Source of the DNA: a bacterium
Lineage (GTDB): Bacteria; UBA8248
Direction: 5' to 3'
DNA length: 64,000 nucleotides
NCBI GenBank assembly: GCA_965221165.1
Contig: CBDCRP010000002.1
Coordinates: 128,001 to 192,000 of the forward strand
Of the stretch, positions 22,232 to 63,018 are shown piece after piece. Every line of letters begins with the position of its first letter. The stretch's first letter is position 1. The notes under the pieces were generated by a model. It saw only the letters and a list, made by a program, of their open reading frames with translations, did no database searches and was not told where the DNA came from. The translations under genes and the position numbers were made by a program.

Positions 22232-22443
22232 CAATTCTCCTATTCCTTGGGTATGCACGATCATTGGACTTTCACCTGCTACATAAGAATTCCGTAGGTT
22301 GCAAGGCGGTGCTTAGTTTGATAATCAATTAATAAGGCTGCGGTCGGCGCGGCCAAATTGAGTTTTCTGGAAATGTACTTGGAGTGAAAGGCCCCCACCT
22401 GATTCATTTCTACCCATTTCCAAAATATGCAGGAGATGCGCAA

Positions 22444-22659
22444 GTGCCAGAAGGAACAGTGAAGTGGTTCAATGACGCAAAGGGCTATGGTTTCATTTCA
22501 CAAACGGATGGTGACGATGTCTTCGTTCACTTCTCCGCCATCCAGGGAGACGGCTTCAAAACCCTGGAGGAAGGACAAAACGTCAACTTCGAAATTGTTC
22601 AGGGCCCGAAAGGGCTTCAGGCGGCCAATGTCACAAAAGGGGGTGACTCCGGAGAATAA
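22444..22659 (+). CDS. cold-shock protein (CspA family)
   Basis: GTG start after AGGAG; [15 protein letters not shown] and DVFVHFSAI. Confidence 0.97.
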
Positions 22660-22682
22660 CCCCCTTTTATGGATAATAACTA

Positions 22683-22715
22683 AAACGACGGCTCACCCGA
22701 GCCGTCGTTTTTTTT
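22683..22715 (+). terminator. intrinsic terminator
   Basis: aaaacgacggctc-accc-gagccgtcgttt followed by a T run. Confidence 0.85.
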
Positions 22716-28230: not shown

Positions 28231-28490
28231 CGTAGGGGCGGTTCGCGAACCGCCCCTACCAACGAGACGACGGCGATGGAAAATCACAAGATGGCGTAGG
28301 GGTGTCGATCTTCCCCGAGGAGGGGAAGATCGTGTGTGTCCGCCCGCAATGCGCCGGGTCGCATATATGCGGCCCCTACACCAAATCCGTGAGCGTGATG
28401 GGTCCGTAGGTCGGACATATATGTCCGCCACACATATATGCGTCCCGTGTTAAGAAAGAGCAGGGCCGCAAATATGCGGCCCCTACACAG
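28231..28490. repeat. REP-like palindrome cluster 2
   Basis: Perfect palindrome GTAGGGGCGGTT-cgcg-AACCGCCCCTAC; gggtcgcatatatgcggcccctac; copy of the 24581 module. Confidence 0.88.
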
Positions 28491-30179: not shown

Positions 30180-30436
30180 GTGGGGGTCAAACCCGACCGG
30201 GGAGGGAGGGTTTGCGTCTCTCGTAGGGGTGTCGATCTTCCCTGAGGAGGGGAAGATCGTGTGTGTCCGCCCGTAAAATGGCGGGTCGCATATATCCGAC
30301 CCCTGTAACAAAACATTGGGCAATAATGGTTCCGTAGGTCGGACATATACGTCCGCCACGCATACATGCGGCCCGGGGGCTCGTGTATGAGAAATGGTGG
30401 TTTTTTTCGTCACTCCGGCATGCGCCGGAATAACGT
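30180..30436. repeat. REP-like palindrome cluster 3
   Basis: Same module order as 28295-28447, plus a ctccggc-atgc-gccggaa hairpin. Confidence 0.85.
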
Positions 30437-38727: not shown

Positions 38728-38915
38728 GGGCAGGACAACCCAAAAGGGTTGTCCCTACGAAACCTATGGATCGTTCAATATACATGCGATTATTTCACCT
38801 GTAGGGGCCGCATACATGCGGCCCTTCCGCTCCCCTGCAAAAGGCGGGTCGCATATATACGTGGGGCAGCCCCGAGGAGTCGGTTCCGACCGGAGAGGGA
38901 GGGACTGCCACCTAC
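38728..38915. repeat. REP-like palindrome cluster 4
   Basis: ggacaaccc-aaaa-gggttgtccCTAC; GTAGGGGCCGCAT-ac-ATGCGGCCC; an interrupted inverted copy at 38846-38915. Confidence 0.82.
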
Positions 38916-59060: not shown

Positions 59061-59705
59061 TCACCCCCAGGTGTTCATGTGCACGATTTCATCGAGCGGG
59101 CGCCTCGTGGCGGGTCTGAAATTCGTCCCCAGCGTGTAGGCCACCGGAATGAGCGCCACCTGCATGAAATCATCCGGCACGCCGAGGAGTTCCGCCGCCT
59201 CCGCCTCGCAGCGCAGGTGCAGCGTGGTGAAAACAGAACCCAGTCCACGCGATCTGAGTGCTAATTGAAAACTCCACACCGCCGGAATAATGGAGCCCAA
59301 AAGGCCCGCCCACATGAACCTCGGCGGACTCTCGGGCAGAAAATTCTCGATGCAGGGAATCACGTGCACGGGTGCGCGCTCTAAATTCTCGGCCAGGTAC
59401 ATGGCGGAATCGAAGACCCGCTCGTTTTGCGCGGACCCGCTTTCTCGCGCCTGCGCCATGCCTTGCTCCAGGTAGTCTCCGGTTCCTTTGCGATAAAGCC
59501 GCCCGAGTTCACGGCGTATGCCCTCATCCGTCACCACCAGCCAGCGCCAGCCCTGGCGGTTCGAACCCGTGGGGGCCTGAAGGCCGAGTTCGAGACATTC
59601 CCTCACGACTTCGAGCGGCACTTCGCGCTCGAAATCGAGGCGCTTGCGCACGGAGCGCGTCGTGGAGAGGAGTTTATCGGTCATTTCCAGGTCAAAATCC
59701 GCCAT
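59061..59705 (-). CDS. nitroreductase family protein
   Basis: TTRSVRKRLD, QAPTGSNRQ, QLALRSRGLGS. Confidence 0.92.
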   Translation of the reverse strand: MADFDLEMTDKLLSTTRSVRKRLDFEREVPLEVVRECLELGLQAPTGSNRQGWRWLVVTDEGIRRELGRLYRKGTGDYLEQGMAQARESGSAQNERVFDSAMYLAENLERAPVHVIPCIENFLPESPPRFMWAGLLGSIIPAVWSFQLALRSRGLGSVFTTLHLRCEAEAAELLGVPDDFMQVALIPVAYTLGTNFRPATRRPLDEIVHMNTWG

Positions 59706-59869
59706 GCGGTGCTCCTTTCAGATGCGTGTTCCGGTGGTTTTTCGGTCGAGATGGCGCATGTTACCAAAACGGCGAGCCCAGCGTAACGCGCAGCACTCTC
59801 AGGTTCCCAACCGAGTGGAGGTTCCTCTATAATCCCCCAAAAATTCCTACAACGAAAATGAGGGAAACC

Positions 59870-60553
59870 ATGTCAGACCAGGCAATCCAAGGGAGCAAAA
59901 TTCCACTCTTAGACCCCGCGGACGCCACGGGCGATACGGCGCGGTACTTTGAAGCCACGCGCGAGTTTCTGGGCCGCATCCCCAATTCCGCACTCGCGAT
60001 GGCGAACACGCCCTACATCGCGCGGCTCTATCTCCCCTTCAACGCCACGCTCCAGCGCGAGGGCATGGGCGGGCTTCTGACGTGCAGGATAAAAGAGATC
60101 GTGGTTCTCAAGACGAGCTTCGTGAACGCCTGCGCCTACTGAATCGCGCACAACACGGCGCTTGGTCAAGCGACGGGAATCACGGAGGCGCAAATCGAGG
60201 CCATCGCCTCGGACGATTACATGACATCTCCGGCTTTGAATCCGCGCGAGCGCGCCGCCTGCCTGTGGGCGGAGCATTTCACGAGAAACACCGCGCGCGA
60301 GAACCCGGGCGTGCTCGAAGAGGTCAAGCGGCGCTTCACCGACGGGGAGATTGTCGAGATGTCCCTCATGAGCGGCAAGCAGGGGATGATGAACCGCTTC
60401 ATGGATTCGTTCGCCATTCCGATAGAGAATGAGGGCGAGGTGAACAAGATCAGGAAATCCGTGCGCGGCAACCCCGACAAGATGAAGGCCTACCTGCAAT
60501 CGCTCATCGACAACTGGCCCGAGGATTTCCCCGAACCCAACCCGGATGAGTAG
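59870..60553 (+). CDS. AhpD/carboxymuconolactone decarboxylase family selenoprotein (227 aa; Sec at TGA 60140-60142)
   Basis: Read-through gives KEIVVLKTSFVNA-C-A-Y-U-IAHN..G...GIT, the AhpD CxxC-x-x-H motif. The downstream ORF 60221-60553 is in the same frame. Confidence 0.85.
60143..60176 (+). promoter_or_regulatory. putative bacterial SECIS element
   Basis: Hairpin cg-g-CGCTT-GGTC-AAGCG-a-cg; the G-starting apical loop begins 21 nt after the TGA. Confidence 0.7.
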
Positions 60554-60624: not shown

Positions 60625-60862
60625 TGTAGGGGACGCATATATGCGTCCCTGCTTTTTCGCCGCCACGATATGGGTCGCATGTATGCGACCCCTACAAACC
60701 CCCCGTGGTTGTCTTTCGCCAGGGCGGGCGCAATAAAACGGGCGGACACGGGGGTCCGCCCCTACAATCCCCGAATCGAAGGATTCCGGCATTTCCCCCC
60801 TCCTCAGCCGGAATTGAGGTCGGAATGACGGGTTTCGGCATCCCTCCCCGCGTGGGGATGTT
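60625..60862. repeat. REP-like palindrome cluster 5
   Basis: GTAGGGGACGCAT-at-ATGCGTCCC, inverted gggtcgcatgtatgcgacccCTAC, gggcggac...gtccgcccCTAC, and an interrupted attccggc...cggaatgac. Confidence 0.85.
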
Positions 60863-61211: not shown

Positions 61212-61670
61212 CTATATGCTCACCTGGAAGTTCGGCAGGCGGACGCCGTCTTTGTCGCCCGTCGGCGGCGCGCTCAACTCCTCCAGCGTGGTTTCGCGTA
61301 GCGTCTTGTCTATCGCGTTTTCGAGTTTTTTCCATAAAACCCGGCTTCCGCACACCGGGATGTTCGGGCACGGCGAGGAAGGCGGCGTCTCCCCGCAATC
61401 CACGGGCTGAATCGTCTCCCCCACGGCGGAGAGAACGTCGCGCATGTTGATTCGAGAGGGCGGCAGCGCGAGGATGTAGCCGCCTCCCGGCCCCCTCGTG
61501 CTGCTCACCAGAGAGGCCCTGCGCATCTTCACGAACAACTGCTCGAGGTAGTGCTGGCTGATTTCCAGATTGCCGGCTATCTGTGGCAAGGGAACCGGGT
61601 GCGTCTGCGAATGCCTGGCCAGCTCTATCATGGCGAGCACGGCGTATCGTCCCTTGGTCGATATCTTCAT
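61212..61670 (-). CDS. Rrf2 family transcriptional regulator (IscR/CymR-like, three Cys)
   Basis: MKISTKGRYA, YLEQLF, STRGPGGGY, Cys triad in VDC...C...C. Confidence 0.92.
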   Translation of the reverse strand: MKISTKGRYAVLAMIELARHSQTHPVPLPQIAGNLEISQHYLEQLFVKMRRASLVSSTRGPGGGYILALPPSRINMRDVLSAVGETIQPVDCGETPPSSPCPNIPVCGSRVLWKKLENAIDKTLRETTLEELSAPPTGDKDGVRLPNFQVSI

Positions 61671-61708
61671 CGGCGAAATCCTCTCATCGGGTGTTTCGGC
61701 CTCATCCG

Positions 61709-62527
61709 CTAAACGAGCGACCCCTGTCCTTCGGGGGTTCCCGGGGTCTTGGCTCGACTGCGCCCGGCGAGCGCGCAAACCGGACAATCCGGGTCCTGCT
61801 CCACGGGCAAGCCTCCAAAGGCGTTGTTCCAGAAATCGGCCGTCATCAGTCTGTTCGACCAGGCGGGCTCAAGCCTCTCGAGAACCCGGAGCGCATCGGC
61901 GGCCTGCGCCATGCCCACGAAGCCCGCCACGGCGCCTAAAACGCCCGCATCCCCACAGTCGAGGCCACGCGCATTTGCGCCCTCCTCTCCCACCAGGCAG
62001 CGCAGACACGCGCTCTCACCCGGCAGAATCGTCATCACCTGGCCGAAAAAGCGCAAAACGCCCCCCATAATCCACGGCTTGCCCGATAGCGCGCATGCGT
62101 CGTTCAAGGTGAGCTTCGTGGCCAGATTATCGCTTCCATCGAGAATGACGTCATAAGGCGCGATGATCCGGGCGGCGTTCTCGCGCGTGAGCTTCAGTGG
62201 AATCTTATCGACCGCCACTTTGGCGGAGAGCCTGAATATGGAATCTGCGCCCGAGTCCACCTTCAGGCGACCCATATCTTCGGCTCTGTGCAGAATCTGG
62301 CGCGCGAGGTTGTCGAGCGTCACCGTGTCGTGATCCGCCAGGCCGATGCGCCCCACGCCCGACGCCGCAAGGGCGAGTGCTGCGGACGAACCCAGGCCGC
62401 CTGCTCCTACGATGAGGGCGGATGAGGCCGCCGGAGCGTTTTCATCCCCCAAGCGGCCCTTGGATGCGCCTGGGGAGGCCACCGGATTTTTTGGTGAGGA
62501 ACCCACGTGCGCCTTATGAAAATTCAC
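61709..62527 (-). CDS. HesA/MoeB/ThiF family adenylyltransferase
   Basis: GAGGLG, NLARQILH, DGSDN, CLRC, CGDAGVLG, DCPVC. Confidence 0.92.
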   Translation of the reverse strand: MNFHKAHVGSSPKNPVASPGASKGRLGDENAPAASSALIVGAGGLGSSAALALAASGVGRIGLADHDTVTLDNLARQILHRAEDMGRLKVDSGADSIFRLSAKVAVDKIPLKLTRENAARIIAPYDVILDGSDNLATKLTLNDACALSGKPWIMGGVLRFFGQVMTILPGESACLRCLVGEEGANARGLDCGDAGVLGAVAGFVGMAQAADALRVLERLEPAWSNRLMTADFWNNAFGGLPVEQDPDCPVCALAGRSRAKTPGTPEGQGSLV

Positions 62528-63018
62528 GCGCCCGCCTCCTCCAGTATCTCCAGATTGCTCTCGACGAAAATTTTTCCCGCCGCTTCCCAGGAAAACACCT
62601 TTTGGCCGAGAACCACGCCATCGCGAACGCTCATGACGACGTGCTCCGCATCCGGGAACGCGGGAATATCCCCGAAAGGAACCGCCGCATCCACGTCTTC
62701 CTGTGAAAAATAGGCGTCCTCATCCGGGTGGCTGTGAAATATGCCGCGAACCACTTCGCCCGCCTCCTCCGCTTTTTTTACGATGCGCTCGAACTCGAAG
62801 GGATCGATCAAAAAAGCGCGCCGCGCCGTTCGGGGATATATTTCCGGGTCTTTCTCGTGCATCTCGTTTTGCACGTTTCTACAGGGCAGCAGAGCGAGAG
62901 CCTCTTCTTTCTCTCCCACTGCGCGCGGCGGGCCGATAATCAACCCGCAACACTCATCGGGATAAGCCGCGCGCGCATGGCGGTGCATCGCCTCCACCTG
63001 TTCACGATTCAAGCGCAC
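62524..63018 (-). CDS. JAMM/MPN+ (M67, Mec-like) metallopeptidase
   Basis: YPDECCG and FHSHPD...FSQED. Confidence 0.92.
   Translation of the reverse strand: MRLNREQVEAMHRHARAAYPDECCGLIIGPPRAVGEKEEALALLPCRNVQNEMHEKDPEIYPRTARRAFLIDPFEFERIVKKAEEAGEVVRGIFHSHPDEDAYFSQEDVDAAVPFGDIPAFPDAEHVVMSVRDGVVLGQKVFSWEAAGKIFVESNLEILEEAGA

Follow-up and report, generated by a model that had tools for sequence, protein, structure and literature searches.

A putative AhpD-like selenoprotein gene with a SECIS-like hairpin embedded in its coding sequence in a UBA8248 bacterium

AhpD-like proteins that have selenocysteine (Sec, U) at the second position of a CxxC-type redox motif have been in print since 2005, when a Sargasso Sea survey listed 27 sequences of this kind under COG2128 (PMC1088965). 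The Global Ocean Sampling (GOS) study of 2008 counted 299 'AhpD-like 1' and 70 'AhpD-like 2' sequences, among the most abundant families (PMC2398784), and a 2026 review tabulates CxxU selenoproteins as AhpD-like (TIGR01926), carboxymuconolactone decarboxylase (CMD)-like (PF02627), and NF041238 (PMC13188914). The lineage concerned here is likewise on record as selenium-rich: the top 10 of BSepDB (2026) includes three Nitrospinota-named metagenome-assembled genomes (MAGs; GTDB phylum UBA8248) with 54, 50, and 48 selenoprotein genes (PMC13326102). A full-text literature search on 'Nitrospin' plus 'selenoprotein' returned only this last report, and supplements, which lay outside the search, may list the subfamily described below. 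We analyzed a window of 64,000 nucleotides (nt) from a bacterium of this lineage (assembly GCA_965221165.1, contig CBDCRP010000002.1, positions 128,001 to 192,000), within which an earlier note, made from the sequence alone, had claimed a single Sec-containing AhpD/CMD-family gene of 227 amino acids (aa) that is split at TGA 60140-60142. Reading frame, domain, and fold all agree with that claim, and judging from the sequence and its relatives, positions 59870-60553 very probably encode a real Sec-containing AhpD-like protein.

Conservation and decoding of the in-frame UGA

Between the start and stop codons of the gene (Table 1), the TGA is the sole interruption of the frame and lies in the context TGC GCC TAC TGA ATC GCG CAC (C-A-Y-*-I-A-H). 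A table-11 listing of open reading frames (ORFs) cuts the gene at this codon and retains ORF 60221-60553 as its 3' piece. The Pfam CMD domain (PF02627), however, spans the TGA, covering aa 67-135 with 31.2 bits against a gathering threshold of 23. When single-TGA read-through candidates were collected mechanically from the window, eight of the 78 gave a Pfam match at E ≤ 1e-5, and only at this locus did the domain run across the TGA. An in-frame ATG at 59858 offers an alternative start; a start equivalent to 59870 is used by 14 orthologs of exactly 227 aa.

The TGA recurs in relatives. A six-frame search of 61 genomes gave matches in 47, including every one of the 36 that belong to the same family. 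Orthologs were present in 22/22 genomes of the same genus at 81-93% identity, each with exactly one internal TGA, and most of the paralogous matches at 35-57% identity likewise contained one. In a census of the column corresponding to position 91 of the protein (U91), which comprised 71 loci and 76 covering high-scoring segment pairs (HSPs), TGA was found in 72 HSPs, TGT, TGC, and GGA in one each, and the remaining HSP was an off-frame duplicate; since the aligned copies are kin, these counts are not independent events. The TGT and TGC copies have lost the first Cys of the motif (S-x-x-C) as well as the H-N that follows it, and the GGA copy also contains a TAG. This genome alone has eight TGA-bearing copies, every one of them with the TGA at query position 91. 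The seven paralogs other than the studied copy are 24-52% identical to it, and one of them (C2:914791-915312) has no normal N-terminus. Two copies, a paralog in this genome (C3:1727720-1728363) and an ortholog in a related genome (G022, C1:2932737-2933416), are each split into two frames at about aa 133-143; these could be decaying copies or carry assembly indel errors.

We also searched a database of 5.8 billion proteins, which yielded 16 homologs. At the U91 column, ten of these have Cys, two Trp, one Leu, and one Ser, while the remaining two, P0008 (140 aa, 'carboxymuconolactone decarboxylase family protein [Nitrospinota bacterium]') and P0010 (124 aa, 'hypothetical protein'), begin just past it, as is produced by gene callers that stop at a UGA. 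The two Trp-containing proteins, P0002 and P0007, are full-length entries from ENA (C-A-Y-W and C-D-Y-W); their Trp may be encoded by TGG, or may come from a TGA that was translated with a different table. The earlier note had suggested looking for Cys or Sec in homologs, and the column does hold Cys in the majority of database proteins and TGA in nearly all genomic copies.

The 3' part of the gene also evolves as coding sequence. Against the 14 equal-length orthologs, the ratio of nonsynonymous to synonymous substitution rates (dN/dS) was 0.12-0.19 upstream of the TGA and 0.05-0.16 downstream of it; therefore, the part beyond the TGA is translated and under constraint. The site is also spanned by contigs, 85-95% alike, of three other public runs, and among the 40 of 82 rows listed no variant was seen at 60140-60142, in a comparison of assembled contigs in which the best-matching run may be the sample that this genome came from. 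The possibility raised by the earlier note that the TGA is a sequencing error is countered by its recurrence in all 22 same-genus genomes and in these diverged contigs. In all four runs, contig depth was highest at 60124-60177, over the UGA and the hairpin described below (338-531 in run X16, vs. ~78 elsewhere), which fits this being the segment most conserved at the DNA level and common to many paralogs and relatives. A 372-nt contig from an RNA library (X23), covering 60131-60183 with six differences, was considered as evidence of transcription and rejected, as it probably derives from a relative or paralog.

Decoding of UGA as Sec requires dedicated machinery, and the earlier note had predicted selA, selB, selC, and selD elsewhere in the genome. 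All four were found in the assembly (three contigs, 3.69 Mb, 58.7% G+C), giving a complete Sec-decoding set: selA scored 564 bits (cut-off 268), selB 384 bits (cut-off 242), selD 330 bits (cut-off 125), and tRNA-Sec 75.9 bits (cut-off 47), the last also called by ARAGORN as tRNA-SeC with anticodon TCA. The selD gene itself has one in-frame TGA, in ...VKAGG*GSKLGPEDL... (C2:975065-976027, minus strand), at what we take to be the canonical active-site Cys/Sec position of SelD. A hairpin lies 3' of this UGA as well, with a GGA triloop at +21 to +23.

These data bear on the alternative that the locus is not a selenoprotein gene at all, being instead a nonsense pseudogene, a TGC or TGT misread in sequencing, two small genes, or a gene in which UGA means Trp or Gly. 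Standard gene calling does split it, database relatives are annotated in truncated form (P0008 and P0010), Trp stands at the column in P0002 and P0007, and the two frame-split copies appear frameshifted. However, the TGA keeps to one column across many genomes, purifying selection acts downstream of it, a single domain and a single fold extend across it, and the Sec machinery is complete. A reassigned code (4 or 25) is excluded since TGA is an ordinary stop and indeed the commonest one in this genome, closing 1258 of the 2839 stop-to-stop frames that are 300 codons or longer, and since it terminates the neighboring SDR, DctM, aminotransferase, and nitroreductase genes just past their Pfam domains. 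The sequencing-error, pseudogene, and split-gene readings are untenable given TGA conservation and downstream constraint, the kinship of the copies notwithstanding. Taken together, we regard a non-selenoprotein origin as scarcely credible.

The hairpin 3' of the UGA

A hairpin follows the UGA within the codons for T-A-L-G-Q-A-T. With numbering that starts at the U of UGA, the stem joins positions 17-24 to positions 29-36 (60156-60163 with 60168-60175), the apical loop starts at 25, and the local fold energy is -7.0 kcal/mol. The core, CGCTT-GGTC-AAGCG (60159-60172), had been noticed earlier and does lie 3' of the TGA; its placement 21 nt downstream needs correction, as the distance of 21 nt applies to the loop, and the stem already begins at 16 nt.

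We compared the hairpin among 68 unique copies, which align without gaps. The loop starts with GG in all 68 and in a fixed register, reading GGUC in 55 copies, GGCC in five, GGAA and GGGC in three each, and GGAC and GGCA in one each. It is closed by a U-A pair in 50 copies and, through compensatory change, by C-G in 17 (unpaired in one), and the two pairs beneath form in 66/68. Overall, 76.7% of cells were paired, vs. 70.1% in shuffles and at most 60.8% in slid registers, and the covariation score was 0.246, vs. 0.147 in shuffles; none of 500 shuffles reached either observed value. Within these codons the informative feature, found in several groups of paralogs, is that the synonymous third base of a Leu, Val, or Phe codon tracks the residue two codons on, such that CUU or GUU occurs with the Gln codon CAA while CUC, GUC, or UUC occurs with the Arg codons CGA or CGG. 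At the Gln/Arg position, five full-length database homologs of the Cys type have Met, Glu, or Leu, which hints, from five protein sequences, that the RNA element may dictate this residue in the Sec forms.

Several results weigh against treating the hairpin as a selenocysteine insertion sequence (SECIS). Its lower stem pairs in only 45-56 of the 68 copies, with one position mismatched in 49. The 61 nt 3' of the UGA showed no excess of folding stability over shuffles (z 0.54), RNAalifold gave no consensus structure for the 68-row alignment, and Rfam at gathering thresholds gave no matching SECIS family; a permissive Rfam scan of 60100-60260 returned only a noise match, snoR117 (E 2.2). In addition, part of the conservation must be at the protein level, since the hairpin lies within the conserved codons A-L-G-Q/R-A, and the shuffle control overstates significance because the copies are related. 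Considering both sides, the hairpin is likely to be a SECIS, and for its apical part the assignment is well supported by the alignment. By their sequences, the eight TGA-bearing paralogs have UGA in one column and one hairpin type throughout. We infer that the hairpin would recruit SelB with Sec-tRNA(Sec), with Sec being inserted at position 91. With 68 unique copies and a fixed-register hairpin, the family would document well how a SECIS that lies inside a coding sequence restricts codons and residues together, Leu-CUU occurring with Gln-CAA and Leu-CUC with Arg-CGA.

Fold, function, and genomic neighborhood

The family alignment comprised 49 rows, namely 44 read-through Sec forms and five Cys forms. 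P48, T82, U/C91, H94, N95, G99, G103, and W133 are invariant in it, and no fewer than 90% of rows keep C88; the C-terminus, part of an extension of ~40 aa, is conserved as ...W-P-x-x-F-P-E-P. From this alignment AlphaFold2 gave a single all-helical domain (predicted local distance difference test, pLDDT, 95.2; predicted template modeling score, pTM, 0.91), in which C88 stands just ahead of helix 89-101 and U91 in its first turn by DSSP. The top Foldseek match was Deinococcus radiodurans AhpD (6k40; E 5e-7, target template modeling (TM) score 0.82, 188 columns), followed by the 'peroxidase-related' structures 2prr, 3c1l, 2pfx, and 2oyo and then by the debrominase Bmp8 (6ohi) and PA0269; target TM scores to 6k40, 2prr, 3c1l, 2pfx, and 2gmy were 0.79-0.84. 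The ~40 residues at the C-terminal end, with helices 188-197 and 202-214, fall outside the matched folds. In a profile search of the PDB, PA0269 was closest (E 7e-23). The U91 motif has its aligned counterpart in a CxxC, both in PA0269 and in the 'peroxidase-related' structures, although in 2pfx the conserved His is one residue farther from the CxxC than it is here.

In AhpD, the second Cys of the CxxC is the attacking residue. In the studied protein, C88 and U91 would act together as a selenenylsulfide/selenol-thiol redox couple close to the invariant H94 and N95. By analogy, the protein is most likely a thiol/selenol-dependent hydroperoxide reductase, or the reductant of a peroxiredoxin-type partner, acting in oxidative-stress defense. 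Some observations count against this assignment. The studied copy misses every curated NCBIfam cut-off, scoring 53 bits with TIGR01926 (cut-off 81.8), 45.7 bits with NF053654 (cut-off 310), and 23.3 bits with NF041238 (cut-off 175). Neither a peroxiredoxin nor a thioredoxin gene is adjacent to it or to its seven paralogs, and the genetic link to ahpC or a peroxiredoxin that would mark AhpD sensu stricto is absent from all of these loci. At E ≤ 0.001, TIGR01926 is matched by 49/49 family members (best 1.7e-23), NF053654 by 49/49, and NF041238 by 47/49; by these profile scores the subfamily is a sister of the NF053654/NF041238 proteins and not a member. In one relative (G035), two read-through ORFs of 468 aa (C19:2150-4600, minus strand 877-2280) and 476 aa (C61:16400-18150, minus strand 151-1578) appear to fuse a CxxU AhpD-like domain, with no intervening stop, to a second AhpD-like domain. 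In that second domain the Sec column holds Cys, a Ser stands in the column of the first Cys (S-x-x-C), and the H-N is missing. The NCBI protein P0004 (361 aa) looks like this architecture cut at the UGA, its second domain having no Cys.

The same selenoprotein might instead perform other chemistry, as a Bmp8-type selenol-dependent reductive dehalogenase or small-molecule reductase, with one substrate per paralog. Bmp8 acts through catalytic cysteines by a mechanism like that of deiodinases. It is as near to the studied protein as bona fide AhpD is by profile (6ohi/6ohj, E 4.5e-13 vs. 2.6e-13), and Foldseek matches it at E 5e-6 with a target TM score of 0.77. The eight divergent paralogs per genome, in unrelated metabolic neighborhoods, would suit such a division of substrates, and a relative ~93% identical over 545 nt occurs in run X16, which is labeled sponge metagenome. 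However, neither a bmp-type gene cluster nor a halogenase turned up in the vicinity of any copy, and the similarity to Bmp8 is no greater than that to many uncharacterized 'peroxidase-related' structures, making this reading quite unlikely. A broader proposal, that the proteins form a distinct subfamily specific to Nitrospinota-named bacteria whose copies became selenol-dependent reductases acting on various small molecules rather than in peroxide defense, we consider unlikely too. If it were true, the marks of the subfamily would be its position below all curated cut-offs, the W-P-x-x-F-P-E-P extension, and the H-N directly after the CxxU; its ~8 Sec copies per genome, with up to 19 matches in one relative, would have diverged in chemistry, Bmp8-like reductive dehalogenation being one example, in bacteria whose relatives occur in sponge metagenomes; and a common SECIS within the coding sequence would bind the protein to L/V/F-G-Q/R at that place.

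The divergent nitroreductase-family neighbor named in the earlier note was confirmed by its domain match (Table 1). It shares a 164-bp intergenic region with the AhpD-like gene and adjoins it in 22/22 genus-level loci, as would be expected of a functional pair in which the flavoenzyme recycles the selenoprotein or shares its substrate. However, these 22 loci are syntenic throughout (radical-SAM-like gene, nitroreductase, AhpD-like gene, and often the Rrf2, ThiF, and JAB genes), and since the entire neighborhood is conserved, the pairing has no independent weight. Outside the genus it occurred in 0/8 loci, examined with flanks of 1.5 kb for L047-L054, where L048 has no upstream flank and no difference separates L047 from L075 in the 72 nt around the TGA. 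The nitroreductase is single-copy in this genome, so that none of the seven other paralogs can be paired with it, and no nitroreductase lies within ~4.5 kb of any of them. The 'undescribed flavin/selenol redox module' of the earlier note is therefore reduced to genus-level synteny, and a functional pair is, in our estimation, very unlikely. Among 79 ORFs in the seven 9.5-kb paralog neighborhoods, no peroxiredoxin, thioredoxin, or flavoenzyme emerged as a recurrent partner; the contexts include HipA/HTH, SOD, SDR/ABM, molybdo-hydroxylase, GFO/IDH/MocA, TTT transporters, and ABC transporters.

The AhpD-like gene looks monocistronic. Its promoter candidate lies 37 nt upstream of the start codon and matches the consensus at 10 of 12 positions (one site vs. 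0.4 expected from shuffles). Downstream, the terminator-like hairpin coincides with a 20-nt palindrome of the type GGG-N-CGCATATATGCG-N-CCC, which looks like a repetitive extragenic palindromic (REP)-like intergenic element. Seven copies occur in the window (0 expected), at 60630-60649, 60672-60691, 28356-28482 (three copies), 30283-30302, and 38805-38824, and 72 in the genome at up to three mismatches; the unit 3' of the AhpD-like gene also serves as the terminator-like hairpin. MoeB, which the ThiF/MoeB-like ORF resembles, is a known selenoprotein family elsewhere. Farther away, at 22352-22713 (plus strand), the window has an Rfam match to the cspA thermoregulator (87.8 bits, gathering score 78), which is unusual for the lineage.

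Table 1. Features of the AhpD-like locus, in window coordinates.
Feature	Position	Strand	Basis or remark
Putative AhpD-like selenoprotein coding sequence, 227 aa read-through	59870..60553	+	ATG 59870, stop TAG 60551-60553
Redox motif C88-A-Y-U91-I-A-H94	60131..60151	+	Translation; U91 is the second position of C-x-x-C
Predicted UGA selenocysteine codon (U91)	60140..60142	+	TGA in 72/76 aligned copies
SECIS-like hairpin	60156..60175	+	8-pair stem with one G.A mismatch, apical loop GGUC (60164-60167); fold and 68 copies
Shine-Dalgarno-like GAGGGA	59860..59865	+	4 nt ahead of ATG 59870
Sigma-70-like promoter candidate, TTCCCA - 18 nt - TATAAT	59804..59833	+	Consensus match only
Terminator-like palindrome and T tract	60629..60660	+	9-pair stem (60629-60650), then GCTTTTTCGC; member of REP-like family
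Divergent nitroreductase-family gene (neighbor)	59061..59705	-	PF00881, 75 bits
Rrf2-like regulator ORF	61212-61787	-	Reading of translation; syntenic in many relatives
ThiF/MoeB-like ORF	61709-62527	-	Reading of translation; without in-frame TGA; syntenic in many relatives
JAB/MPN-like ORF	62524-63018	-	Reading of translation; syntenic in many relatives

Relation to known systems

The family, the CxxU motif, and the selenium-rich lineage are all in print already. What is mildly new is the distance from curated models, the C-terminal extension, and the expansion to eight copies per genome sharing one type of coding-embedded, probable SECIS. There is also a correction to be made in annotation, as standard callers cut this gene, its seven paralogs, and the orthologs in every related genome at the UGA. 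Public databases consequently hold fragments, such as the 140-aa and 124-aa proteins mentioned above, and the miscut genes would hide a sizeable share of the organism's redox enzymes.

The hairpin resembles the Escherichia coli fdhF-type SECIS in lying immediately 3' of the UGA, within the coding sequence, and in having a G in its apical loop. In fdhF, too, the loop is GGUC; it starts ~22 nt after the U of UGA, vs. 25 here.

Of the solved structures, the CMD-family AhpD-like protein PA0269 of Pseudomonas aeruginosa (2o4d, 2ijc, 7xw1) is the best sequence match at 30-31% identity, and its motif N-x-C-A-Y-C aligns exactly with N-A-C-A-Y-U of the studied protein. However, PA0269 is shorter (145-165 aa), with neither the first 40-70 residues nor the extension at the C-terminus, and Cys takes the place of Sec. 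The AhpD proteins of D. radiodurans (6k40, ~21% identity) and Mycobacterium tuberculosis (1gu9, a weak structural match at E 0.55) have in common with it an all-helical fold and a CxxC-type center at a helix N-terminus, but the studied protein has Sec for Cys and no ahpC-type neighbor. Among curated NCBI models, NF053654 ('GroundWater_YciW, YciW-related (seleno)protein') and NF041238 ('AhpD_rel_CFYUT') describe AhpD/YciW-type proteins that occur as selenoproteins.

The closest counterpart is the AhpD-like selenoprotein family itself. As far as the published surveys describe that family, the likeness extends to a CMD/AhpD-type domain with Sec at the second CxxC position, widespread Cys homologs, and, if the hairpin is the SECIS that it is likely to be, a bacterial SECIS directly 3' of the UGA. 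The studied copy departs from it in falling under the TIGR01926 cut-off and in its ~40-aa extension ending in W-P-x-x-F-P-E-P. With respect to lineage, relatives of this genome bear the same names as the selenoprotein-rich Nitrospinota/Nitrospinaceae MAGs of BSepDB.

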